From IMG/VR virus record IMGVR_UViG_3300028831_000183, positions 1-46,835 of that record: 46,835 bases of DNA; one strand, written 5' to 3'. The translations under genes were made by a program, and so were the position numbers. The DNA comes from a virus. Shown in pieces: positions 5,577 through 46,835 of the stretch (within the stretch, counting starts at the first letter, position 1; each line of letters opens with the position of its first letter). The notes beneath the pieces are model-generated. The model saw only the letters and a list, made by a program, of their open reading frames with translations, had not been told where the DNA came from and did not search any database.

Positions 5577-5702
5577 CGGCTAAAAATGTTTTGCGCTGTT
5601 TACACATGGGGGGCGTCATCAACGCCAGAGCCATGCCACCCCGAAGCTGATGCGCAACCGTGTATAAACAGCGCACGCAAAGAGAGGAGAAGTATCGAGC
5701 CT

Positions 5703-5731
5703 ATACTAGCACGATTTTTTAACTCCGTCAA
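5703..5731 (-). promoter_or_regulatory. Leftward promoter (class A): TTGACG-17-TGcTAGTAT
   Basis: On the minus strand the -35 TTGACG is at 5726-5731 and the -10 TAGTAT is at 5703-5708, preceded by TGc. The hexamers are the same as in the 11040 promoter. Confidence 0.6.
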
Positions 5732-5827
5732 CGTACAACCTGTAAAGGGCCTATTCATATACATGAAGGAAAAAAAAATTTTTTTTTTCTTACGTGTATG
5801 TAACCAGGCCCTTTACAGGTTGTACGT
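5731..5827. repeat. Perfect 21-bp inverted repeat flanking an A9T10 tract
   Basis: acgtacaacctgtaaagggcc (5731-5751) is the exact reverse complement of 5807-5827. The centre carries A9 (5770-5778) and T10 (5779-5788). The left arm abuts the leftward -35. Confidence 0.9.
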
Positions 5828-5898
5828 AGGTTTTTTGGCTTTCTAATGCGAAACTAGAACATAAATTCTGAGAGAAAGGTTAAAAAGTCTAAGAAATC

Positions 5899-5927
5899 TT
5901 GACACCAGACCCGATCTATGATACACT
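5899..5927 (+). promoter_or_regulatory. Rightward early promoter (class A): TTGACA-17-TGaTACACT
   Basis: -35 TTGACA at 5899-5904, 17-nt spacer, extended -10 TG (5919-5920), and TACACT at 5922-5927. Confidence 0.6.
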
Positions 5928-5933
5928 ATCGAA

Positions 5934-6100
5934 GCACGGCAAGGCTAGTTCCCCTTCCTGCTCCCTGCTGGCCCCCAGTTCCGCCAGCGACAACCAGCGG
6001 TCGTATGTAACGGTATCGGCCGCGATCATACATATGACCGCTGGTTGAAAAAATCGGTACATTGACAGCCCGTTACCTGTCAATGTACCGATTTGCATTT
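5934..6100 (+). ncRNA. Structured early leader or possible small RNA (two long hairpins, the second terminator-like)
   Basis: Hairpin 1 pairs 5991-6009 with 6029-6047 (19 bp, one G-U). Hairpin 2 pairs 6051-6068 with 6077-6094 (18 bp perfect) and is followed by gcattt. No credible ORF. Confidence 0.35.
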
Positions 6101-6121
6101 GTACGCAACAGGAGTAACACC

Positions 6122-6316
6122 ATGATTATAAAGACAACGTTTTCCCAATTATGTGCAGATGCGATTGCGTATAATCGTATCTATCTCCCACGAGATACCA
6201 AATATACTGTTTACGATTACATACGCAAAATGTACATCTACGGTCACGTGCAATTTGCTATATCGTACACACCCTTAATGCGCAGCTTCGCATTGTTGAC
6301 GCTAACCGATGTGTAA
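6122..6316 (+). CDS. Hypothetical small protein
   Basis: The ATG at 6122 is preceded by AGGAG at 8 nt. 64 aa. The longer track ORF (6062) would begin inside the hairpin. Confidence 0.45.
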   Translation: MIIKTTFSQLCADAIAYNRIYLPRDTKYTVYDYIRKMYIYGHVQFAISYTPLMRSFALLTLTDV

Positions 6317-6334: not shown

Positions 6335-7147
6335 ATGACAGCAATAAAACATCTATCGCCGTTTCGTTACCCTGGGGGTAAAGAATGGTTTAAGCCATAT
6401 GTCAATGACTGGGCGCGTATGTGCGGCCCCTTTGATACGTTCGTTGATCTCTTTTCGGGCGGTTGCTCGATTGGCTTGCACGTAGCACAACAAAAGCTCG
6501 CAAGTCACGTTTTCCTAATCGAGCGTGATCCGCGCATAGCAGCATTTTTTCTTACGGCATTCACGGAGCCGCAGGAAATTATCGATCGCATACGTCGATT
6601 TGATTGCACGCCGCGTGCAGCTGAGCGTGTTTGTAATGACACGTCAACCCGTGCTGCAATTGGGTTTGCAGCGTTCCTCAGAAATCGGATCAATTTCGGT
6701 GGATTACAACACGGCGGCATGCTCAGATGGGGATATGACGGATTAGGAATACAATCCTGCTGGTATGCTGATACTTTGATCAAGCGCGTCAAAAACCTTT
6801 TCGCATTGCGTGATCGGATAACCTACCTCTGTGTTGACGCATTCGATTTTCTCTTAAATTTTCAGCAATCAGCACATGTGTTTATCGATCCGCCTTACCC
6901 TCTAAGCAATCGGCAATTATACACGTTCAATCATATCGATCACGCAAAATTGTTTGATACGCTCGCATTCAGAACCGATCTTGATTTTCTCATGACGTAC
7001 AACCAGGATCAAACAATTCTGGATTTGATTAAACAACACGGATTTAAGTACAAGCTTGTACCAATGCGCACGTTACGCGCTGAAAAGCGGTATGAATTAG
7101 TTATTCATCGTACATTTGCAAGAGGGGTAGCGCCATGCAAGTCCTAA
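6335..7147 (+). CDS. D12-class N6-adenine DNA methyltransferase (Dam-like)
   Basis: 270 aa. Motifs FRYPGGK (N-terminus), FVDLFSGGCS (SAM binding) and FIDPPY (catalytic DPPY). Confidence 0.85.
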   Translation: MTAIKHLSPFRYPGGKEWFKPYVNDWARMCGPFDTFVDLFSGGCSIGLHVAQQKLASHVFLIERDPRIAAFFLTAFTEPQEIIDRIRRFDCTPRAAERVCNDTSTRAAIGFAAFLRNRINFGGLQHGGMLRWGYDGLGIQSCWYADTLIKRVKNLFALRDRITYLCVDAFDFLLNFQQSAHVFIDPPYPLSNRQLYTFNHIDHAKLFDTLAFRTDLDFLMTYNQDQTILDLIKQHGFKYKLVPMRTLRAEKRYELVIHRTFARGVAPCKS

Positions 7148-9952: not shown

Positions 9953-10308
9953 CTATAAACATCACACAAACCGCGCGTATGCCTAATGGAAATATCCTTG
10001 CATGGTTCGATAACGGCTGGTGTAAGGTATTCGAGGAAAATGAATGTACAACCTGCTGGCGCAAGGGCGGAACGCTAGAGCTTGACACAGACGGCGATGG
10101 CGTTTGGGCAATGCTAGTTATACGTTTCGATCCTTGCCCTGACTGTCTTGACAAAGGTTTGTGTCCTGGTTGCGGAAACAAAACGCTCAATATAATAGAG
10201 GAGAATATAGTGGAGCAAACATGTGTTATCTGTGATTGGCAATATAACAGTGACAGATTTTACCCTGAACCAGACTGCGCTTACTGGGATAATCCCTTAG
10301 CACATTAA
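9949..10308 (+). CDS. Hypothetical Cys-rich (zinc-ribbon-like) protein
   Basis: 119 aa. ATGA overlap with the upstream stop. CxxC pairs are present (CTTCW, CPDC, CPGC, CVIC). Confidence 0.5.
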   Translation: MTINITQTARMPNGNILAWFDNGWCKVFEENECTTCWRKGGTLELDTDGDGVWAMLVIRFDPCPDCLDKGLCPGCGNKTLNIIEENIVEQTCVICDWQYNSDRFYPEPDCAYWDNPLAH

Positions 10309-10319
10309 GAGGCATTATC

Positions 10320-10586
10320 ATGGGCACAAAAGAAGTACTCGATTGCCTATGGGCGATGTATCAGGAGAGTTATGCAAAACCGACACATTTTTTGCTCGAT
10401 CCAAGTCTAGTAAACCAGCTGCAACGAGATGGTAATTGGCCCGGTTACCCGATCCGTGTTGATATGACAAACGGTAACGTTACTGTGTTCGGCTTGCCTG
10501 TCCTTCCGGTCCTTGGAAGAAATTACCCCTTTCTAGCAATCGGGCATATCGTCATTGCTGAAGAGACTGTAAAGGATAAACGCTGA
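10320..10586 (+). CDS. Hypothetical protein
   Basis: 88-aa ORF with a GAGG-type RBS upstream. Confidence 0.5.
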   Translation: MGTKEVLDCLWAMYQESYAKPTHFLLDPSLVNQLQRDGNWPGYPIRVDMTNGNVTVFGLPVLPVLGRNYPFLAIGHIVIAEETVKDKR

Positions 10587-10782
10587 AAACGTGTAACGAA
10601 AGGGCGATTTAGGGCATTCTAATCCGGTGACGCTCTGTAAACGCTTTACACGCTCGATCGGCTACTATAGAAACCGCATCAGAAAGCCAAATACGTCCTA
10701 ACCCAATCTAACACAAGACAGGACTAGCCGATCAGCCAACTAGCGGCATCGCTGGCAAGCTCACACAGACCAGGAGACACGC

Positions 10783-11010
10783 ATGAGACTAGCATCTGCT
10801 GAACCGCTCTTGCTCACAAGCTGTGGTTGCCCGCTGGCGTTTGATCTCGTTGACGCTGACAGCCCCAGACCGCAACCGATCGTAGGACGCGCAACGTACA
10901 ACAAATGGCTGTCACGCAAAGGCGAGATTTGGTACGACGTATCCGCGCATATCGACGGACGAACGTACAACGGCTCGATTTGCATTCAAGCTAAAGAAAA
11001 ATTTAACTAA
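10783..11010 (+). CDS. Hypothetical protein
   Basis: 75-aa ORF with an AGGAG RBS 7 nt upstream. Confidence 0.45.
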   Translation: MRLASAEPLLLTSCGCPLAFDLVDADSPRPQPIVGRATYNKWLSRKGEIWYDVSAHIDGRTYNGSICIQAKEKFN

Positions 11011-11039
11011 ATCTTAACCAATATTAGTCAAAATTCCGC

Positions 11040-11068
11040 TTGACGATTTACGCGATCTATGTTAGTAT
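11040..11068 (+). promoter_or_regulatory. Class A promoter: TTGACG-17-TGtTAGTAT
   Basis: -35 at 11040-11045, 17-nt spacer, TG at 11060-11061, and -10 TAGTAT at 11063-11068. It fires into an ORF-free region. Confidence 0.6.
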
Positions 11069-11074
11069 ATGCAA

Positions 11075-11520
11075 AAGCAGAGAATGCGGAAACTACTGAG
11101 GCTGTAGTCAAGGTTGAACCTGAAATAAGCTAAGACCTAAAGGGGCAAGCAAAAGACCACCGCATTCATGATCGCTACCGCGCGAGAGCAAGAGAATGAT
11201 ACTAGGCAAGGTTACGGCCTACCTATATTGCGCAAGCTGTCAAGCACTTGCTCTACAGGCCGCAAGCCTGTGAAATGCAAACCTGATGCTAGGTAAGATA
11301 GTCGGTACTCCGCGATCCCCGCTAGGCGGAAACGTTTCGCGGAAAGCCCGGCCGGTAGCGATCACACCTGTACGTTGTCAGCAGAGATCAGCGCTCGCAT
11401 GGTAGACAAGCGCAATATGCAGTTGCCTTGCATACGTACAGCGCTCGCATCGTAACTATGTAGCATGGACGTGCGATCGGGCTATCATGAGGCAACGAGC
11501 GCTGATCTCTGCTGACAAAT
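11075..11520 (+). ncRNA. Candidate large structured RNA or long structured leader (class unknown)
   Basis: No ORF of 60 aa or more and no RBS-led small ORF. Perfect helices: 11082-11089/11160-11167 (8 bp), 11169-11180/11353-11364 (12 bp), 11185-11192/11247-11254 (8 bp) and 11375-11397/11496-11518 (23 bp), plus several local hairpins. Confidence 0.4.
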
Positions 11521-11551
11521 CAAACATCATTATTTTGAGAAAGGAAAGCAC

Positions 11552-12196
11552 ATGCCGCGCAGAACCCCTACACCAGAAATGGAACCGCCCGATGAGGTTA
11601 TCGGCTCCGATACGCCGCCACAAGAGGAAAATGGCGTCAATCCGCCGCCGTACGATGCAACGTGGGTTACTATCAAAGACGCAGCTGCGCGTGCTGGCGT
11701 CACTGGCCAAACTGTGCGCAACGCTTATCTGAAACACGAGGCGTTCAATGTGGTAGGCGAAACCGACGAAAGCGGCGCCGTACCCATCACACAGCGCTGG
11801 TTTTCCACCTTGATGGTCGATCAGTTTGGCAATGCGACCGACTATCCTGTTGTGTACCTCGATAGTGCTGCCGTTGATGCATGGATTGTAGCCAGGGCAG
11901 ACAAGCCATCTGTCGGCGTACGCAAGCCAAACGATCCGAAGCGCTATATCGTCCGTCTGACCGACGATCAGGCAACCGCGTACAACAATGGCGATTATGC
12001 ACTTGCGTTCGATCTCCCTGAAGGTGGTCGTGTAACACTCGAAACACCGCCGCAGTCGGTGCGCAAGAGCAAGAGCAAGAGCAAGAGCAAGAGCAAGAGC
12101 GCTAGCGCTGATCAGCCGACTGAAACCAATGGACAATCCGCAGAGCAAGTCCCACAAGGCGCATCGCTCTTTGACGTTGATCTAGTCGAAGCATAA
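11552..12196 (+). CDS. HTH DNA-binding protein (MerR/excisionase-like helix) with a (KS)6 tract
   Basis: 214 aa. WVTIKDAAARAGVTGQTVRNAY is a typical Xis/MerR-type HTH. Pro-rich N-terminus and a KSKSKSKSKSKS tract near the C-terminus. RBS GAAAGGAAAG. Confidence 0.6.
   Translation: MPRRTPTPEMEPPDEVIGSDTPPQEENGVNPPPYDATWVTIKDAAARAGVTGQTVRNAYLKHEAFNVVGETDESGAVPITQRWFSTLMVDQFGNATDYPVVYLDSAAVDAWIVARADKPSVGVRKPNDPKRYIVRLTDDQATAYNNGDYALAFDLPEGGRVTLETPPQSVRKSKSKSKSKSKSASADQPTETNGQSAEQVPQGASLFDVDLVEA
12065..12100 (+). repeat. Hexanucleotide tandem repeat (aagagc)x6
   Basis: Six perfect in-frame copies that encode (Lys-Ser)6. Confidence 0.95.
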
Positions 12197-12209
12197 AATC
12201 AAATCAGCG

Positions 12210-12254
12210 AAACGCCTATCACATAATTATTGGCTCTCGTGTGATAGGCGTTTT
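12210..12254 (+). terminator. Intrinsic terminator
   Basis: 14-bp stem, aaacgcctatcaca (12210-12223) with tgtgataggcgttt (12240-12253), running into TTTTgtcttt. Confidence 0.75.
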
Positions 12255-12295
12255 GTCTTTAACCAAATCCTAACGAAATCTTCATATTTTATCCC

Positions 12296-12325
12296 TAGAC
12301 AAAACCTACCTACTCGTGTTATACT
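12296..12325 (+). promoter_or_regulatory. Class B promoter: cTAGACA-N18-TGtTATACT
   Basis: TAGACA at 12296-12301, TG at 12317-12318, TATACT at 12320-12325. About 38/42 identical to the promoter at 27010. Confidence 0.6.
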
Positions 12326-12345
12326 TGCGTTGAAAGTTAATCGTT

Positions 12346-12364
12346 TACCGCGTTAGCGGATCGC
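12346..12364 (+). promoter_or_regulatory. 19-nt 5'-UTR motif taccgcgttagcggatcgc, copy 2
   Basis: Exact repeat of 7173-7191. It ends 19 nt before the ATG at 12384. Confidence 0.5.
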
Positions 12365-12383
12365 TCACACAGGAGCTAATACT

Positions 12384-13349
12384 ATGACAACCCCTCACAA
12401 GCACCGCCAGACCGTTATCGATCGCGCAATTTCCCAGGGCAAGACAATTTCCGATCACGACGTAAGCGTATCGCAAACCTTGAAAGAGGTTGCAATCGAT
12501 TTCGTACGTACGTACCAGGGAACCAATTCCTTTGTGCAGAGCATTGCTATCTATCTAGAGGATCGCGGCTCGCTTTCGCTTGCGCAGATGCGCGGCGCCT
12601 TGAATGTGATGGTAGGGGAGTACAAGGCCGAGCAACGCGTGCGTACGGCGCTAGTAGCTCCCAAATTCACCACGGCAGAGTACACACAGGCGCAAGCGTT
12701 GTACGGCGCTGAGGGACGGTCAGGGATCGATCGGCCCGCGTTCTACGTCGATATGGCAGCGTCAAAACCTCAGAAATCGGTTTACATTACAGAAACCGAT
12801 CCGGTACTGAAGCAAGCCGCATGGGAAGAGCGAAACGGCAAGATCGTACCAAACGGCACTTACACAGTGCCGATCAACAATGCTGGCGAGTATCGCGTGA
12901 TCAAGCTCCAAGATGCGCCTGAGAAATTCAACAAGCCCGCTGGTACGCAAATCGCCAGTTACCAATCAGGTAGCGATAACGAAAGCGACTATACAGGATT
13001 TGCGTTCGTCAACGGCGATCGGTACACCCTTTGGCGAAAATTCTCGCGCGCGCATATAATCGAGCATGCTCTGGTTAAGCTGCTTTCGACAGGCAAGCAT
13101 GCCGAATTTGGACGCTTGTGGGCGATGGAAGCTGGCGCGTGTTTTATCTGTGGTCGCAAGCTAACTGTTCCGATCAGCAAGAAAGCTGGTATCGGCCCAA
13201 TTTGCGCCGCAAACGTCGGTATCGACATTGTAGCACTTGCTACGCTCGCTGGCGACAAGGATCAAGCAATCGAGCAAAACGAACTACGCGACAAGATCGA
13301 TCGGCAAGCGAAAGCGCAAGCCGACATGGACGAACTATTCCCCCAGTAG
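12384..13349 (+). CDS. Hypothetical protein with a DUF6011-like C-terminal Cys motif
   Basis: 321 aa. CFICGRKLTVPISKKAGIGPICA matches the CxxCGRxLT...GIGPxC signature seen in phage DUF6011 proteins. Function unknown. Confidence 0.55.
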   Translation: MTTPHKHRQTVIDRAISQGKTISDHDVSVSQTLKEVAIDFVRTYQGTNSFVQSIAIYLEDRGSLSLAQMRGALNVMVGEYKAEQRVRTALVAPKFTTAEYTQAQALYGAEGRSGIDRPAFYVDMAASKPQKSVYITETDPVLKQAAWEERNGKIVPNGTYTVPINNAGEYRVIKLQDAPEKFNKPAGTQIASYQSGSDNESDYTGFAFVNGDRYTLWRKFSRAHIIEHALVKLLSTGKHAEFGRLWAMEAGACFICGRKLTVPISKKAGIGPICAANVGIDIVALATLAGDKDQAIEQNELRDKIDRQAKAQADMDELFPQ

Positions 13350-13361
13350 ACAAGCATATGT

Positions 13362-13392
13362 GCAGGGCGCTAGCCCGTACCTAGCGCCCTGC
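13362..13392 (+). terminator. GC-rich hairpin, terminator-like but without a U-tract
   Basis: 12-bp perfect stem, gcagggcgctag with ctagcgccctgc, loop cccgtac. Lies 12 nt after the stop at 13349. Confidence 0.45.
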
Positions 13393-13408
13393 TTGAAAGG
13401 ATAATACG

Positions 13409-13591
13409 ATGATAGTCGTTACTTTCTTGATCGTATTATTTTTTCCGCTAGGGTGGGGACCGTTATTTTGCTTATTACTAACTAGCGATCCTAAATACAG
13501 CGGGTATAAGCCGCTTAAGCGGAATGTGTTTTTCTACTTGTGGATTATCCAAGCGATCATTCTTACAGTACTAGTCAGGTACGTACACTAG
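13409..13591 (+). CDS. Small two-TM membrane protein
   Basis: 60 aa with two hydrophobic helices separated by a basic loop. Confidence 0.45.
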   Translation: MIVVTFLIVLFFPLGWGPLFCLLLTSDPKYSGYKPLKRNVFFYLWIIQAIILTVLVRYVH

Positions 13592-19585: not shown

Positions 19586-20431
19586 ATGCAAATCGTCAAT
19601 CTAGATTACACAAAGTACCTTTCCGTGCTAGCGTACGGAAAGCCGGGGAGTGGAAAGACACATTTTCTTGGAACTGCATGCGACGATGACCGATCCTATC
19701 CTGTACTGCACGTTGACGTTTCAGGGAACCCTGAAACGCTTGCAAATCGACGTGATAGCACAAGCCCTAGGAAACTAGGGCGTGTACCATACGTCGTACG
19801 CTTGCAAAAGCTTTCCGAGCTTAACGTGATTTTCGATTGGTTTGACAAGGGGCAACCTGACAGTCACCCAATGGTTGCGAAGGGTTGTACACCAGGATAC
19901 AAAACATTGATATTTGACGGCGTAACGGCGATACAACGCCAATCGTTTAACGTCGTGCTAGGGCAAGATTTACAGCCCGGCGATGTGCCACTAAAGCCGG
20001 AATGGCCGACATACGCCGCCGTATTGCGTCAAATGCTCGTCATTGCATCGTGCTTCTTGCAACAGCTGCGTAATCGAAACATTCATGTCTTGGTTTCGTG
20101 TCTAGAGCACACAGATATACGCTACACGTCGCCTGGCATTGCTGCTACAGCGTACCAGTATACGGAGCCAGGCTTGCAAGGACAGGCCGTCACAGAGCTT
20201 CCGGGTGAAGCGCTTGCAGTGTTGCGCCTGTGCAATCGTGCAGCTGCGCAGATAGAAGTAATAAAAGCGCCTGAAATGCGCAATGCATACACGATTGCAC
20301 AACTGCGTGAAAATAGGTTTGTATATGCGAAGGATCAACACCACTTAGGCGGCATTTCAATCGGTGATAGCATTTACATGGGCGATCCGACAGTACCGAA
20401 ACTGTTAGACGCAATAGGAGCACAAGCATAG
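19586..20431 (+). CDS. AAA_24 / Sak4-like RecA-fold ATPase
   Basis: 281 aa. YGKPGSGKTHF lies close to the N-terminus and a Walker B-like LIFDGV follows. Followed by a DUF669-like gene, a common phage recombination pair. Confidence 0.65.
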   Translation: MQIVNLDYTKYLSVLAYGKPGSGKTHFLGTACDDDRSYPVLHVDVSGNPETLANRRDSTSPRKLGRVPYVVRLQKLSELNVIFDWFDKGQPDSHPMVAKGCTPGYKTLIFDGVTAIQRQSFNVVLGQDLQPGDVPLKPEWPTYAAVLRQMLVIASCFLQQLRNRNIHVLVSCLEHTDIRYTSPGIAATAYQYTEPGLQGQAVTELPGEALAVLRLCNRAAAQIEVIKAPEMRNAYTIAQLRENRFVYAKDQHHLGGISIGDSIYMGDPTVPKLLDAIGAQA

Positions 20432-27802: not shown

Positions 27803-27832
27803 AGGCCCCGGCGATCCCTTTCGCCGGGGCCT
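27803..27832. terminator. Bidirectional terminator hairpin between the convergent early and late arms
   Basis: 12-bp GC-rich perfect stem, aggccccggcga (27803-27814) with tcgccggggcct (27821-27832). Lies between the plus stop at 27790 and the minus stop at 27855. Confidence 0.7.
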
Positions 27833-27854
27833 TTATGCTGTAATAAAGCGGCTA

Positions 27855-28346
27855 CTATGTGATTAGCCGATCGATCCAAAATTCAGGTGAGTAATTTCCA
27901 GCGGCGGTAACGTTCAAGTTACCGCCGCTGTTTTGGAATACAACAAGCTCCGCATAATCTCCAGCTGTAAAAAAATAATCCGCTGTTACCTGCATAATAG
28001 ATACTTCCGTAGCGTGACTAACAGGATAGAGTACGAGCGCTAGTATCGTTGTGTTATTTAACACAATACGCGCTTGTCGCGATCCTGTTGCATTTGCCGC
28101 CCAAGCTATCGTGCCTGTTACGCGATAGTAGCCATCAAACGGGATTGTAAGACGCGACGTATTGCTAACAGTCGAATGAAATGCATCTGTGTCATATCGT
28201 TCGCTGTTAAATGTCAGCGCTGTAAGCGTTGCGGTTGTGATCGCAATATTCGCGCTGTTATAGACGCGCGCTCGTATGCCGCGTGGTACACTTACGGATT
28301 TTAATTCTTGTATGCGCTGATGTGCGGCGCTAATACTTGGCAGCAT
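27855..28346 (-). CDS. Putative receptor-binding tip protein with a C1q/TNF-like jelly-roll
   Basis: 163 aa, the last gene of the tail module. LTFNSERYDTDAFHS...RLTIPFDGYYRVTG resembles the C1q-domain pattern (FdxxxxNxGxxyd..tGxFtxPxxGxYxf). Confidence 0.4.
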   Translation of the reverse strand: MLPSISAAHQRIQELKSVSVPRGIRARVYNSANIAITTATLTALTFNSERYDTDAFHSTVSNTSRLTIPFDGYYRVTGTIAWAANATGSRQARIVLNNTTILALVLYPVSHATEVSIMQVTADYFFTAGDYAELVVFQNSGGNLNVTAAGNYSPEFWIDRLIT

Positions 28347-31992: not shown

Positions 31993-34527
31993 TTACCCTG
32001 TAGGATTGATATTATTTAACATCGCTTGCATGCGGATTTCGTCCCGTAGTGTACGCTCATCTTGATGCCGATAGTTTCCTGTGATATTAAGATTTAAGCT
32101 GCCATTATTATTCTGATTTGCCGTATCGCGTAAACGATTTGCAATGTCGTTATTGCCATGGTTGTCACGTTGATTAACTACAGCGTCAAGATTGATACCC
32201 GAATTAAGATTATGTAACCCAGCGCTTAACTGTGCTACGGCAGTATTAGCTGTTAATGCCTGCGTATGAAATTGATTTAGCATGTTACCGGCATCTAATG
32301 CTGATTGCCCAATGGCGCTAAACCAATTCGCCATAGGTGGTGGTGAATGACCCTGCAACCAGTCTGGCACTTGAATGTTGTTTAACGCATCAGCAACCTT
32401 GTTGATCCAATCGATCGCCTTTGATACGGCATCGCTGATGAAATTAAACGCATCACGAATACCGTTAGCTGCACTTTGACCCGTCTCGAACGCAGGTTTA
32501 AGATGACTATCGATCGCCGCAACTACTGCCATAAACATAGGATTTAGTGTACCAAGAATGAAAAATGCAACGCTTTCAAGCGCTGGCTTAAATCCTCGAT
32601 TGATTACTTCATCATACAACTTTACAAATATCGGCACAATATACGTATTTATATAGTTCCATGCCACTTGCAACGCCGGTAAGATAACGTTTTGCCAGAC
32701 GGCCGCGAGCATGCGCAAGGCTAGACTTAGTGCTGCAATATTCACATTCACGAGTGCCTTAATAATCGGAATGATATATGCGTTCAAGAAGCCCCACACT
32801 GCCTGTAGTGCTGGCAAAAGTATATTTGTCCAGAAACTACTCAAGGCTTGGATCGCCGCTTCTAACGCGGCGATATGTGCGGTTACTAATGCTACTATGA
32901 TCGGTATAACATACGTGTTAATGAAAGACCACACAGCATTGAATGCAGGTATAAGCGTATTGTTAAGAAAATCAGATGCAGCTTGAATAGCTACAGGAAT
33001 GTTTGTTGTTAACCATGCAGATACAGCGGTAAAAGTAGGCAATAGGTATGTATTCCATATGTTCATTAGGATATCACGAATACCCATAAAATTTGTATTC
33101 CAAGCAGTATATAACAGCGCAACAGCGGCGCCGATTAGTGCAAGCGGTATCAACACAGGTGCGAGTGCCGCGATTGTAGCAATTGCTGCTGCGCCAGCTG
33201 CTGCTGCCCATGCGATAAACGTAGGTACAACTATCGTCACGAGGATTGCCGCCAAACCCGCGAGAATAGCATCAGCGTTTTGCTTTACAAAATCGCTAAA
33301 TGTAACAAGGCTATCATGTACTATTGCAAGTGCAGCACCTAGTTGCGGAAAGCCGTTATCTTGTACTGTAGCACTTAGGTTTGAGAAATCAGGTATTAAC
33401 GGTGTAACGATTTCTGCAATCCTTCCTAACAGTGTTGTTACCACGTCAAGGATTGGCTGTAAGAAGGTGCCTAATCCGCTGCCTAACTCAGTTATCGTAT
33501 CTAACCATGATGTGCCAAATGCTGTAGGATCGTTGCCCAATAGTATTTGTATTTCATCTGCAAATCCTTGTATAACAACACGTACTGTTTCAAATATACC
33601 GCTAAGCATATTCCACGCACTAATAGCGTTCGGTATGATTGTGTTACTAATATAATCGATTACTGACCCTACTCCAGATGCAAGCGTATCGGCAAAACTC
33701 GTAAGCATCGCTTGTGTGTCTGGTGATCCTAGAAATGTCAGTAATTCGCCTAGCTGCGTCTTAACTACGTCAAATATAGGTGCAGAAACGGTTCTAAGTG
33801 TACCAGATACCCAATCCTGTAAGTTGCTCATCATGCCCTCGAATGTAGCACTTTGAGCATTCATCATACCGCCGTATTTGTCTTGCATGAGCTTCAAGAC
33901 AACATTCATCGCTTTAGGTAACGGCGACAACAATGCCCCGGATTTATCAAACTCCAATCCCATCTTAGCGAGATCAGCTCTACTAGCAATGCCTAATTCA
34001 GCCATGCGCGAAATTGCCTCTCCAGTTGCGCCGGCTGAAAACTTTCCGAGTAGAAGTGACATTTCCTCGAACGATGATCCAGTGCCAGAGGCAACATCAC
34101 CTGCTATCGTTCTAATTTGCGCACCGCTGAAACCGAATTTCTTTGCGGCCTCTTCCGAGTGCAAACCGAAACCCTGTAAGATTTTATCGGCATTGACTAC
34201 TTCTGGTAACTCAAACGGCGTTTGCGCGCCAAACTTTGCTAAGTCCGCAAGGCGCTCTTTCGCTTTCTCCGTTGATCCAAGCAGTACCCCAAATTGCGTT
34301 TGATATCGCTCAAATTCTGCGTTACTAGCAACACCCTTTACAATACCGCCGATAGCTGCAATAACACCGCCAGCTGTAGCAGCAAGGCCCATCTTCATAG
34401 CACTGCCAAGAAAGCCCCCGATTTTGCTGCCAAAACCAGATGCTTTTGTCTCAGCTTGATCTAGCCCTTTGTCGTATTCTGAGGCGTCTAGTCCCAGTCC
34501 GACAAGCAATTTAGCGAGTGTTGTCAT
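31993..34527 (-). CDS. Tape measure protein
   Basis: 844 aa. Long helical protein rich in Ala/Gly/Leu with a hydrophobic central segment and repeated ...NTYIIPI..AL... units. Follows the G/GT chaperones. Confidence 0.85.
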   Translation of the reverse strand: MTTLAKLLVGLGLDASEYDKGLDQAETKASGFGSKIGGFLGSAMKMGLAATAGGVIAAIGGIVKGVASNAEFERYQTQFGVLLGSTEKAKERLADLAKFGAQTPFELPEVVNADKILQGFGLHSEEAAKKFGFSGAQIRTIAGDVASGTGSSFEEMSLLLGKFSAGATGEAISRMAELGIASRADLAKMGLEFDKSGALLSPLPKAMNVVLKLMQDKYGGMMNAQSATFEGMMSNLQDWVSGTLRTVSAPIFDVVKTQLGELLTFLGSPDTQAMLTSFADTLASGVGSVIDYISNTIIPNAISAWNMLSGIFETVRVVIQGFADEIQILLGNDPTAFGTSWLDTITELGSGLGTFLQPILDVVTTLLGRIAEIVTPLIPDFSNLSATVQDNGFPQLGAALAIVHDSLVTFSDFVKQNADAILAGLAAILVTIVVPTFIAWAAAAGAAAIATIAALAPVLIPLALIGAAVALLYTAWNTNFMGIRDILMNIWNTYLLPTFTAVSAWLTTNIPVAIQAASDFLNNTLIPAFNAVWSFINTYVIPIIVALVTAHIAALEAAIQALSSFWTNILLPALQAVWGFLNAYIIPIIKALVNVNIAALSLALRMLAAVWQNVILPALQVAWNYINTYIVPIFVKLYDEVINRGFKPALESVAFFILGTLNPMFMAVVAAIDSHLKPAFETGQSAANGIRDAFNFISDAVSKAIDWINKVADALNNIQVPDWLQGHSPPPMANWFSAIGQSALDAGNMLNQFHTQALTANTAVAQLSAGLHNLNSGINLDAVVNQRDNHGNNDIANRLRDTANQNNNGSLNLNITGNYRHQDERTLRDEIRMQAMLNNINPTG

Positions 34528-34548
34528 ACTATTAAAGAATCCGGTTGA

Positions 34549-35318
34549 TTATGTATCAACCGGATTTTTGCGTAAATCCTTGCCCCCAAATGCTACATTC
34601 AATGCTTCGACGATTGATAGTTGTTCTTCCCATGATTGTTTACGCCGTTTCCAGGAAGGAAAGAAATCGAGCGGTTTTACACGTCGCGCACTTTTCTTTT
34701 TGTTCGCATTAGCAACAACTGATGCAATTACTCCCGCGCGATAGTCCGCACGCGCATCGCCAAATGGCTCTACTTGGTAAAACGCTTTCCAATCTTCATA
34801 TTCCTTGCTTGTCATGCGCGATTGCAGTTCAGCAACCGTACACCCGCCTATTGCAAGCGTTAACTTGTACCAGAACCATTTACTACCATGCTCGGAAAAT
34901 TTGCGGCGTTTTCCTCGATTTGCGCCTCTGCCGCGTCTTCGTCTTTCGCGATTGCAGATAGTTCCATGATGGCATCGATAACAGCCTCTAGACCATCGGC
35001 AGGCTTGCTGCCAAGCTCTTTGAGATCGCTGTGATTATTTACATCGTACATCTGCGATCCGTCTGGATTAAGCAAGCCCATTGCAGCAAGGCGGGCACGA
35101 GCGCCTTTAAGCGTAAACTGTTGCGTTGTTTTCTTGCCCATGCCTGACACGCGCATAAGCGATTGCTCGTATATGTCGCGCTCGTCACCCATAAGGCCGC
35201 GTACAAGCACTTGCGGCATTTCATCTGAGGCTATGTCAGGTGTACGCCACGTCGGAACATCAACAATACGTGTACGCAGTTTTACTTCACTAACCTGCCG
35301 TCTGGTCATTAGGGGCAT
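34549..35318 (-). CDS. Tail assembly chaperone frameshift product (gpGT-like, -1 PRF at 34896-34902)
   Basis: Minus-strand A_AAT_TTT sits in the zero frame of gpG. The -1 frame translated by hand from the slip site is open through to the 88-aa ORF 34549..34815. Confidence 0.65.
34860..35318 (-). CDS. Tail assembly chaperone (gpG-like)
   Basis: 152 aa, between the major tail and tape measure genes. A slippery heptamer lies near its 3' end. Confidence 0.7.
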   Translation of the reverse strand: MPLMTRRQVSEVKLRTRIVDVPTWRTPDIASDEMPQVLVRGLMGDERDIYEQSLMRVSGMGKKTTQQFTLKGARARLAAMGLLNPDGSQMYDVNNHSDLKELGSKPADGLEAVIDAIMELSAIAKDEDAAEAQIEENAANFPSMVVNGSGTS

Positions 35319-38069: not shown

Positions 38070-38392
38070 TATTTCGTCGTTTTAGGTGCCTGCGCCTGTG
38101 TAGCTTGTGCAGGTCGTTCTACCTTTTCAGGTGTACCAGACGCAGGTATCTGACTTTCGCGCGTTGCTAAGCGTGCATTGCTTTCACGCATAGCCACGCG
38201 TACATCGCTTTCAGACTGACGTTGCGCATCTAGCTCTGCACGTAGTCGCGCGTTCTCCTCTTGCAACGCTACCGCGTCGGTTGCTGGCCTATTCGCCGCA
38301 TCAATTTCCTTCTGAAACATGCGCCGCAACTGACCTAGCTGATTGACTATTATTGTCAGCTGTTCGTTGACGCTTTCGTAATTGACTGGCAT
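38069..38392 (-). CDS. Hypothetical coiled-coil protein
   Basis: 107-aa ORF after the capsid gene. Its AGGAG RBS is embedded in a hairpin. Confidence 0.5.
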   Translation of the reverse strand: MPVNYESVNEQLTIIVNQLGQLRRMFQKEIDAANRPATDAVALQEENARLRAELDAQRQSESDVRVAMRESNARLATRESQIPASGTPEKVERPAQATQAQAPKTTK

Positions 38393-38473
38393 CGTATTAT
38401 CTCCTATGTGATAGGAGATATGCTACCTATGCCGGCAAGATAGCATATCCCACTACACTCTAATAGGGGCTAA

Positions 38474-39658
38474 TTAAGAGCCGCTACCGTTACTTGCGAC
38501 GCTCGCAAGCGGATCGATGATAATACCGCCGTAGCAATGACGAATTTTATAATCGATGCTATCGTCATCGAATGAACCTTGCATTGGATCAACTAATCCA
38601 CCACCACCGATACGAATAGCATCAGGGGATTTCATGAAAAGCTGCGGTGTTTCGTATCCTTGCAAAAAAGCTGCCTCAAATAACGGCTTTCCGACCGACG
38701 CAGAAGCATGCAGATACCACGCTGTTGCCCCATGTGTTGTGTCAATCATTTCCAATGTCGGATTGACAACGAGCGTAACGTTACTACGCATCCAATTGTT
38801 CGTTAAGATGCGCTGATCAGCACTGTCGGCTCCAATGATGATCTGCGTTGCGTTCAAGATGTTTTGCGCAATCAACGTCAGCGACGGCGGGACTTCGAGT
38901 ATAACAGCCTCGATCATGATTGGTTCGCCGCTTATAGGATCACGCTGCTTGTAGAGCACGGTAAACCCATCTTGCAATCCGAGGATCGAAAGTGCTGGGT
39001 TATTTGCTACCGCACCATTAGCTTGATTGATAATGTTTTTGTTCGTGTTACTGTAGACAGTTGATCGCGGCCCAGTTGACGATACATACAACGAAGTGAA
39101 GTAGTACTGCTCGCTACGCACAGCGGCGCGGCCAAAACGGATAGGCGTATCTTTAAGCTTATTCGTTACATCGTTGACCATCGCTTCCCAGCTGAATGGC
39201 ATACGCCGTCCATACTTTTTAATTTTGTAGGTAAGCGGGCTTATTTCGTCAAGTGACGCAGCAGGATACAGCGCAAGCTCTTTTACTTCCTCTAGTCGTG
39301 TATCGCCACCAAACGGATCGTAGTCGCGTTGCACAAGCCGGAAATCAGGGACGGTGACAACCTTTGCGATCGCTCGCCATGTTGCAGGCCACTCGCGATA
39401 ACTTGCAAGCGTTTGACGTTGAATGATTGTTCCAAACAACAACGGAAAATCCGACGTAGACATAGCCTCTTGCAAGTGATAACGCGGAATTTGTCCCGTA
39501 TAGATGCCATGCAAGAAACGGACGGTTTCAACAAGGCGCCGTTGAAATCGTGGATCGCGTACGTTTCCACGCGACACGTTGAAACCTTCACGTGCATACA
39601 AGCGTTGAATAGACGCATCACGCGCGCTGATAGTATCGATCAATTCTAGCAATTCCAT
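38474..39658 (-). CDS. Major capsid protein
   Basis: 394 aa. Lies after the scaffold- and decoration-like genes. Strong AGGAG RBS, followed by hairpins. Size and position are typical of HK97-fold capsid proteins. Confidence 0.7.
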   Translation of the reverse strand: MELLELIDTISARDASIQRLYAREGFNVSRGNVRDPRFQRRLVETVRFLHGIYTGQIPRYHLQEAMSTSDFPLLFGTIIQRQTLASYREWPATWRAIAKVVTVPDFRLVQRDYDPFGGDTRLEEVKELALYPAASLDEISPLTYKIKKYGRRMPFSWEAMVNDVTNKLKDTPIRFGRAAVRSEQYYFTSLYVSSTGPRSTVYSNTNKNIINQANGAVANNPALSILGLQDGFTVLYKQRDPISGEPIMIEAVILEVPPSLTLIAQNILNATQIIIGADSADQRILTNNWMRSNVTLVVNPTLEMIDTTHGATAWYLHASASVGKPLFEAAFLQGYETPQLFMKSPDAIRIGGGGLVDPMQGSFDDDSIDYKIRHCYGGIIIDPLASVASNGSGS

Positions 39659-46631: not shown

Positions 46632-46835
46632 ACTACAAGGAAACCGTCAACACGTTCGCCACCCAGTGGTGTGAGCTTGTCATCGAGCAAGAGCGCCTTA
46701 TCAACCTCGCTAATCGGCCTGTCTGTGGTAAGCCCGGCCATGGTTTCAAGGCCGCTCGCAAGGCCGCTAGAGCCAAGCGTGAAATCGATCAGCATCTTGC
46801 CACACTAGACGCGCAGATCAACAACTGGACAAGCC
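46628..46835 (+). CDS. Hypothetical protein, 5' part of the junction-spanning ORF (continues at 142..254)
   Basis: ATGA overlap with the previous stop. The frame is open to the window end and continues through the duplicated 141 bp to the stop at 252-254. Confidence 0.6.
   Translation, partial: MNYKETVNTFATQWCELVIEQERLINLANRPVCGKPGHGFKAARKAARAKREIDQHLATLDAQINNWTS
46695..46835. repeat. Terminal duplication, copy 2 (identical to 1-141)
   Basis: Exact 141-nt match to the start of the window. Confidence 0.95.

Follow-up and report, generated by a model that had tools for sequence, protein, structure and literature searches.

The DNA analyzed here is a stretch of 46,835 nucleotides (nt), hereafter referred to as the window, that comprises the virus record IMGVR_UViG_3300028831_000183 of IMG/VR from its first to its last position. 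Between an upstream gene of 75 amino acids (aa) and a downstream gene of 214 aa, the window contains a non-coding gap (11011-11551) that, judged from its sequence, very probably encodes a functional structured leader RNA on the plus strand. We interpret the segment from about 11075 to 11551 as the 5' untranslated leader (about 477 nt) of a one-gene unit that consists of a promoter, the leader, the gene at 11552-12196, and a putative terminator at about 12207-12265. This interpretation is based on the conserved promoter at the start of the gap, the absence of a terminator before the ATG, and the presence of one after the gene. The leaders found at this locus in related phages are mosaics of modules, termed A, B, C, D, and F, that are closed by long-range helices, and together they appear to form a new RNA family whose mosaic architecture is unusual.

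A promoter scan found the near-consensus, sigma-70-type promoter with an extended -10 region (TTGACG, 17 nt, TGtTAGTAT; 11040-11068, plus strand) that a preliminary description of this DNA had placed at the beginning of the gap. Besides the window, 12 distinct syntenic loci were assembled from protein homologues, a metagenome scan, and contig look-ups, and the promoter layout (TTGnnn, 17 nt, TGnTAnnnT) is kept in all of them; without exception, the 12 homologous intergenic regions retain the -35 TTG, the TG and TAnnnT of the -10 region, and a spacer of 17 nt. In the same 12 relatives, the first structured element begins a few nt from the inferred start of transcription, which would lie at about 11075 in the window, and a non-coding gap of 285 to 634 nt separates the same two genes. 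The downstream protein has 3 homologues and the upstream protein has 11, each of which is encoded directly upstream of the non-coding gap; the 75-aa gene (10783-11010, plus strand; function unassigned) thus anchors the locus in terms of synteny. Between promoter and ATG, the window has no hairpin that leads into a U-run, and folding of positions 12197-12383 with RNAfold (z = -3.7) predicts an intrinsic terminator with an 18-bp hairpin followed by UUUUGUCUUU at 12207-12265 on the plus strand. The preliminary description had envisaged a promoter-driven structured RNA of roughly 450 nt. This view is borne out as far as promoter and structure are concerned; the RNA is, however, the leader of the gene at 11552 and not a stand-alone transcript, and it is built from three independent modules and not from a single fold. 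Likewise, the gap had been considered the largest one in the genome free of open reading frames (ORFs). Positions 11011-11455 are indeed the longest stretch without an ORF of at least 60 aa in any of the six frames, but the divergent, probably gene-free region at 5577-6122 is about equally long.

The leader ends in an A/U-rich, weakly paired linker (11519-11551, plus strand) that carries the Shine-Dalgarno sequence AAGGA at 11541-45. Its mean pairing probability is 0.36, compared with 0.65 for the body of the leader, and the relatives share this layout. No conserved helix that would mask the ribosome-binding region was found.

Among the relatives, gain, loss, and re-ordering have affected modules A to D and F and have extended down to individual hairpins. 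One hairpin forms helix P5 of module A in locus L001 and is present as an insertion between P2 and P3 in L002 and L013. Loci L012 and L013 encode an identical 73-aa protein, yet their leaders differ by an inserted hairpin and a different P5. The first module of the leader differs by phage (E, the 5' domain of the window discussed below, A, B, F, or another type), and no module is universal. Covariance models detected no module copies outside this 5' untranslated region in the window and the fetched loci. We also scanned IMG/VR with strings from modules A to D and with the two proteins whose genes flank the leader; the sole true match (L022/L026) is the same phage as the related locus L004, and six further matches to the module B pattern lie in coding DNA and were dismissed as chance. 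In L002, a perfect 19-bp long-range helix (GAATTCCGCATTGTGATGC / GCATCACAATGCGGAATTC) surrounds about 50 nt at positions 451-538, upstream of the 73-aa gene; some relatives consequently carry helix-closed elements outside the leader as well.

Module A, which is present in 8 distinct relatives, spans about 180 nt; its helix P1 closes a junction with P2, P3, and P4-P5, and its invariant nucleotides are AAAUGCA, AUAAUUGGUAC, and GAAGCCCAAUCA. In the alignment, 96% of the cells are paired, compared with 25-43% when the partners were slid against each other; just 6 pairs have changed on both sides in these 8 sequences, which are close to one another. With its P1-closed junction, its covarying helices, the invariant AAAUGCA, AUUGGUAC, and GAAGCCC, and a variable P5, module A has the features by which riboswitch-type aptamers are recognized. 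Each P1 arm of the relatives' module A is partly palindromic (CAACC-N6-GGTTG), whereas the P1 arms of the window are not.

We built a covariance model (R1) from these 8 module A sequences, leaving out the window. Run against the 46.8-kb window, R1 gives a single match, located on the plus strand (11248-11361; 24.2 bits, with a rough E-value of about 7e-5), in which AAAUGCAA, AUAGUCGGUAC, and AAAGCCC are retained. We therefore regard positions 11169-11364 (fold z-score -4.9) as a divergent member of module A, designated A', which keeps the junction motifs of the family. Its P1 (11169-80/11353-64; 12 bp) is unlike the P1 of the relatives in sequence and occupies the same topological place. Within this helix follow, all on the plus strand, P2a (11185-92/11247-54), a hairpin (11255-71), the junction sequence AAAUGCAA (11273-80), P3 (11281-85/11290-94), P4 (11301-05/11348-52), the trinucleotide UAC (11306-08), P5 with an inner hairpin (11309-14/11338-43), and the sequence AAGC (11344-47). 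P4 has changed from AUUGG/CCAAU in the family to GUCGG/CCGGC in the window, which corresponds to two double changes and one U-G pair. All six pairs of P5 are still paired in the window, and four of them differ from the family on both sides.

Module B, a unit of about 105 nt with helices P1 to P4 and invariant AAAGCUUGU and AUCAGGGGAGCAAG loops, occurs in 5 relatives that represent all three protein clades, and it does so at differing positions of the leader. Half of its pairs (18 of 36) have changed on both sides, a value reached by none of 500 shuffles, and 94% of the cells are paired, as opposed to 28-41% when the partners were slid. The module B pattern is absent from the genomes of GTDB. 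When read on the minus strand, the P2 hairpin and a conserved A-run resemble an intrinsic terminator, with a hairpin followed by AUUUUUGA (L001 5928-5950; also in L004, L011, and L014). The invariant G-U pairs in P3 and the covariation in P1 argue for a function of module B on the plus strand; a second role of P2, in blocking antisense transcription, is conceivable. The window lacks two other modules. One of them, module C, has its own closing helix in L004 (2676-2880), L011, and L015; it extends from GACUAGCAnGGGGGAUCAUAC to GUAUGCUGCUAGAAUACGGUACCCC, and a GGGG/CCCC pseudoknot may form within it. The other, module F, is present in L004 and L011, where it is closed by covarying helices of 10-12 bp (CAACCGCAAC/GUUGCGGUUG against ACAACCACAGG/CCUGUGGUUGU).

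The structure next to the ribosome-binding region of the window is module D (11375-11518, plus strand; fold z-score -7.5). A perfect 23-bp helix (11375-97/11496-518) closes a branched interior of about 98 nt and is extended by about 8 more pairs beyond a 6-nt bulge, resulting in a near-continuous duplex of about 30 bp; the closing helix ends 33 nt upstream of the ATG. L005, the closest relative of the window, possesses the D helix at the same place (1145-67/1263-85). Between the two, 19 of the 23 pairs are identical, 3 have changed on both sides, and one G-C pair has become a G-U pair on the plus strand, and the helix arms are more conserved than the interior. The truncated contig L003 carries the same 3' arm, and the D arm is absent from IMG/VR. 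RNase III sites in leaders are duplexes of about 20 bp or more that lie between promoter and ribosome-binding site; the 23-bp helix of D is such a duplex and can thus be viewed as a candidate RNase III site.

The three perfect helices to which the preliminary description had drawn attention (8 bp, 11082-89/11160-67; 12 bp, 11169-80/11353-64; 23 bp, 11375-97/11496-518) are all present, and the inner elements (11185-92/11247-54, 11255-71, and 11309-43) had been read correctly. To judge these helices against chance, we used 300 dinucleotide shuffles of positions 11069-11551. Perfect inverted repeats reach 12 bp in 1.3% of the shuffles and never exceed this length; those of at least 8 bp number 8 in the leader, compared with 1.4 expected per shuffle. 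The claim that the helices exceed chance accordingly holds for those of 12 and 23 bp; single 8-bp helices are at chance level and do not constitute evidence, since 1.4 repeats of this length or longer are expected per shuffle. The fold z-score of the whole leader is -7.0 on the plus strand and -5.4 on the minus strand. The 5' domain (E; 11082-11167, plus strand), in which the 8-bp closing helix 11082-89/11160-67 surrounds a hairpin at 11092-11108, had been portrayed as structured as well, a portrayal that the data do not sustain: the z-score of positions 11076-11168 is only -1.8 and not significant, and blastn found no homologue of the domain in any relative. Its helix is real, but the domain is an orphan whose structure is not established. 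The covariance model of module B does not match it, even with filters turned off. The preliminary description had also proposed that homologous regions be inspected for covariation, and both the 12-bp- and the 23-bp-closed domains turned out to have homologues with compensatory changes.

The RNA is assigned to the plus strand because of the G-U pairs, the alignment fold energies, and the promoter. For module A, the alignment fold energy is -53.8 kcal/mol on the plus strand and -47.6 kcal/mol on the minus strand, and for module B the corresponding values are -33.4 and -29.0 kcal/mol. Module A has 38 G-U pairs when read on the plus strand, two invariant ones included, as compared to 11 on the minus strand. 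Counting tetraloops of the GNRA/UNCG type (4 on the plus strand, 0 on the minus strand) yielded too few cases to be weighed.

A protein-coding gene does not explain the region, as there is no conserved small ORF and the differences in module length are not multiples of three. The small ATG ORF at 11168 indeed lacks a Shine-Dalgarno sequence, as stated before, and it is not conserved; its length is 42 aa, not the 40 aa given originally. Among 95 small ORFs of the homologous regions no peptide similarity was detected, the best match having an E-value of 0.03 over 8 aa. Known RNA families do not account for the region either, in agreement with the initial impression that it belongs to no familiar class. 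Rfam 15, whose families include riboswitches, ribozymes, group I/II introns, GOLLD, ROOL, OLE, HEARO, 6S, and tmRNA, gives zero matches at the gathering threshold for the whole window, a single chance microRNA match (E = 1.8) for positions 10900-11700 in E-value mode, and zero matches at E-values up to 1 for 9 related loci; ARAGORN predicts no transfer RNA or transfer-messenger RNA.

The window begins and ends with the same 141 nt (1-141 = 46695-46835) and is therefore a genome, closed or terminally redundant, with a length of 46,694 bp. It is that of a siphovirus-like phage from a rare clade of an uncultured soil lineage without a close isolate. The minus strand encodes terminase, portal, head protease/capsid, and tape measure proteins; the plus strand encodes a Dam-like methyltransferase, a D5/DUF5906 primase-helicase, a MazG-like protein, an SNF2 helicase, a PD-(D/E)XK nuclease, a DUF669 protein, and a family A polymerase. 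Two proteins were compared with those of isolated phages, namely the primase-helicase and the polymerase, and their aa identity does not exceed 31%; blastn found no match for positions 10000-13000 among GenBank phages. Scanning the GTDB genomes for the downstream protein family and the module B pattern gave no match. An independent soil metagenome contig (L027) is base-for-base identical to the window over the whole region, which is consequently not an assembly artefact. A genome-wide structure scan in 150-nt windows, which is blind to the long-range helices of the leader, gave strongly negative z-scores (-5 to -8, based on only 12 shuffles each) at 19651-19875, 13276-13500, 34426-34575, 27826-27975, and 38326-38475; some of these five spots are likely terminators at gene ends.

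In the region 5899-6122, a second promoter of the same class (TTGACAccagacccGATCTATGATACACT, 5899-5927) precedes a leader of about 190 nt (z = -9). This leader contains two hairpins, one of 19 bp (5991-6047) and a perfect one of 18 bp (6051-6094). The latter leads into UUUGCAUUUG, resembles a terminator, and is located ahead of the first gene (ATG at 6123); the same layout is found in L001. A complementarity between AAAUGCAA of module A and TTGCATTT in this early leader (6095) is not conserved in L001, and we treat it as chance. A further predicted promoter (TTGACG, 17 nt, TAAAAT; 12171-12199) lies immediately 5' of the terminator hairpin that follows the 214-aa gene, and here again a promoter is at once followed by a terminator-like structure. 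The window promoters at 11040 and 5899 and the promoter of L005 have a GATC at the matching position of the spacer (11054, 5913, and about 905, respectively; CGATC(T/C)ATG(A/T)TA), and a D12-class adenine methyltransferase is encoded at 6335-7147 of the window. Promoters with such a spacer GATC may be sensitive to methylation.

The gene that follows the leader (11552-12196, plus strand) encodes a 214-aa protein with a disordered N-terminus that is probably a MerR/Xis-type helix-turn-helix (HTH) protein. Its family is rare, with 19 representatives at E-values up to 1e-3 among 1.84 billion proteins. Matches to HTH_17/MerR are sub-threshold and restricted to distant family members, nothing was found in PDB, Pfam, and NCBIfam, and the AlphaFold2 model (predicted local distance difference test score, pLDDT, of 56) gave weak, not significant fold matches, which are of the MerR, BldC, and excisionase types only. 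The HTH label given to this gene in the preliminary description is hence plausible; the sub-threshold matches and the low-confidence model do not prove it. At its C-terminus (12155-12196), the family has an invariant acidic motif, LFDV-x-L-x-E, that follows a low-complexity linker (KS repeats in the window), and this LFDVxL tail resembles a short partner-binding tail.

How might such a leader work? Since each module is closed by its own long-range helix, the modules should fold independently of each other, and they would do so co-transcriptionally. In phage leaders and in the processing stalks of ribosomal RNA (rRNA), RNase III is known to cleave duplexes with a length of at least about 20 bp, and the duplex of module D would be a classic substrate for it. 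By analogy with the lambda N leader, T7 early RNA, and the rRNA stalks, the RNase III of the host would cut the 23-bp helix of D, thereby detaching the structured upstream RNA and resetting the stability and translation of the mRNA. The invariant junctions of modules A and B imply specific partners, and binding of such a partner (a protein, RNA polymerase, or a small ligand) to the conserved junctions would time the expression of the downstream gene. Like the RNase III sites of the lambda N leader and of the T7 early mRNA (R0.3-R1.3), the D helix is a long duplex between promoter and ribosome-binding site; unlike these simple hairpins, it encloses about 98 nt of branched structure, belongs to one of several unrelated modules, and shares no sequence similarity with them. 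We see about as much reason to expect RNase III processing at D as to doubt it. That the main role of the leader is the cis-regulation or the stability of the downstream gene is a tentative assumption to which we would not quite commit ourselves. Overall, we lean slightly toward a cis-acting modular leader, probably processed by RNase III, whose modules have specific partners.

Several points weigh against this explanation. Module D rests on two informative sequences only, and a concerted change of two protein-binding half-sites could mimic its compensatory changes. The 5' domain is unsupported, the window alone folds almost equally well on both strands, and the E-values of R1 are rough as a consequence of a shortened calibration. 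No module is common to all phages and none can thus be essential for the downstream gene, a situation that agrees with an accessory or trans role no less than with a role in cis. Furthermore, there is no clear sequestration of the ribosome-binding site and no sign of an expression platform. The unmasked ribosome-binding region and the lack of a universal module together weaken a simple riboswitch or put-like model and keep alive the idea that the leader is a cassette for RNAs acting in trans.

Action of released modules in trans is a possibility that we would sooner doubt than expect. As a full explanation, the leader would be a cassette site for trans-acting RNAs, the modules being excised to serve as aptamers or as decoys or inhibitors of a host defence or host factor, with the gene merely sharing the promoter; we consider this unlikely. 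It would fit the mosaic content and its quick turnover as seen in L012 and L013, the different positions of module B in the three clades, and the invariant nucleotides in loops and junctions. It would also fit the resemblance of the closing helices to the processing stalks of the 16S and 23S rRNAs, where long-range helices likewise join the ends of several domains arranged in tandem on one transcript. The domains of the leader differ from those of rRNA in being 90-200 nt in size and part of an mRNA leader. A cassette site is at odds with the observations that D alone has a duplex of the size canonically cut by RNase III, that no module ends in a terminator, and that the modules are confined to this one 5' untranslated region in the genomes searched. 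That the locus is a dedicated "RNA cassette site", in which one promoter-driven slot would receive swapped, helix-insulated, independently folding modules (A, B, C, D, F, and others) that each represent a new functional RNA class, such as an aptamer/riboswitch or a decoy for a protein or a defence system set free by processing, strikes us as quite unlikely. A cis-acting antiterminator of the HK022 put type, or a ligand-sensing leader, would instead govern readthrough of the terminator at about 12207 into the DUF6011, HNH, and replication genes. As in the HK022 put, EAR, and LoaP leaders, a structured RNA adjoins the promoter, here in all relatives, in a phage operon with downstream terminators. 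A strong terminator directly follows the gene, the other early promoter (5899-5927) also has a leader with a terminator-like hairpin that is conserved in L001, and the P1-closed junction of module A, with its invariant junction nucleotides and variable peripheral hairpin, resembles an aptamer. We nevertheless deem this explanation very unlikely. An element that binds RNA polymerase should be conserved, and put, with its two hairpins in about 70 nt, is conserved, whereas the leaders described here measure 220-570 nt and consist of variable modules without a universal one; in the window, P1 has no competing helix that would form a terminator or mask the Shine-Dalgarno sequence, and no riboswitch or leader family matches.

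Explanations that dispense with a function of the leader as an RNA have to account for its inverted repeats in a different way. The modules are units of 90-200 nt bounded by perfect inverted repeats and vary in presence and position among the relatives, conservation of the D helix is higher in the arms than in the interior, and the P1 arms of the relatives are partly palindromic; all this would be expected of selfish miniature inverted-repeat elements (MITEs or Correia-like) or of paired DNA operator sites. Correia elements and bacterial MITEs are, moreover, short units that are co-transcribed with a downstream gene and whose hairpins are substrates of RNase III. In contrast to such elements, the modules are single-copy per genome, with no others in the window, the fetched loci, and IMG/VR, nor in GTDB, which was scanned for module B only. 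Reading of the flanks revealed no target-site duplications, the internal helices covary with G-U pairs while the unpaired junctions are invariant, the P1 arms of the window are not palindromic, and the position of D, shared by the window and L005 in spite of a diverged interior, speaks for vertical descent. We thus regard selfish elements or operators as highly improbable, and we assign an equally slight chance to the region being the replication origin, or a transcript-primed one (R-loop or RNA II-like), for the neighbouring primase-helicase, an alternative that the preliminary description had raised. The region adjoins replication genes and has long perfect inverted repeats and two direct copies plus one partial inverted copy of the AGCGCTCGCAT box, and its promoter fires into it, in the manner known from ColE1 RNA II, the primary origin of T7, and the R-loop origins of T4. 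Its seven GATC sites in 541 nt are nonetheless ordinary for this genome (8.2 GATC per kb, twice the expected rate), in which 20% of the 541-nt windows hold at least seven. The box is not reiterated in L005, where it is restricted to the two arms of the helix, whereas an iteron or DnaA-type origin would call for three or more boxes conserved among the relatives. The G+C content of the region (0.50-0.58) exceeds that of the genome (0.47) and no AT-rich element is present; the cumulative GC skew follows gene orientation, with its minimum at about 7-8 kb, its maximum at about 28 kb, and nothing at 11 kb. Branched helices with plus-strand-specific G-U pairs and compensatory changes likewise do not fit an origin. 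The divergent, probably gene-free region at 5577-6122 contains, at 5731-5827, a 48-nt, 85% palindrome centred on A9/T10 that is the strongest local structure signal in the genome (z of about -10 in the 150-nt scan); it is a candidate origin or operator and looks more like an origin than the leader region does.

Phages are known to have structured leaders as well as large non-coding RNAs. GOLLD, ROOL, and the orphan motifs of Rfam are, like the leaders studied here, large multi-helix phage RNAs of unknown function that were recognized by covariation; they are, however, stand-alone genes with a fixed architecture, while we find 5' leaders with shuffled modules that have no Rfam match at any threshold tried. 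Tandem arrays of independent modules that are duplicated, lost, and re-ordered between related viruses are also found in the 3' untranslated regions of flaviviruses (exoribonuclease-resistant RNA, dumbbell, and stem-loop), a parallel that is purely architectural as virus type, RNA end, and biology are different. We found no description of leaders of the present kind in the literature, and a leader that comprises at least five unrelated, covariation-supported modules recombining between close relatives has, to our knowledge, not been described before.

At the least, our analysis annotates a conserved transcription unit in an uncultured lineage of soil phages that lacks a close isolate. If the modules of its leader bind specific partners, several new RNA folds would be added to those already known, and phages would then diversify RNA elements by cassette exchange in the way they do with anti-defence genes. 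Should the modules indeed be cassettes for RNAs that act in trans, their shuffling would represent the RNA-level counterpart of the hot-spots of anti-defence genes.

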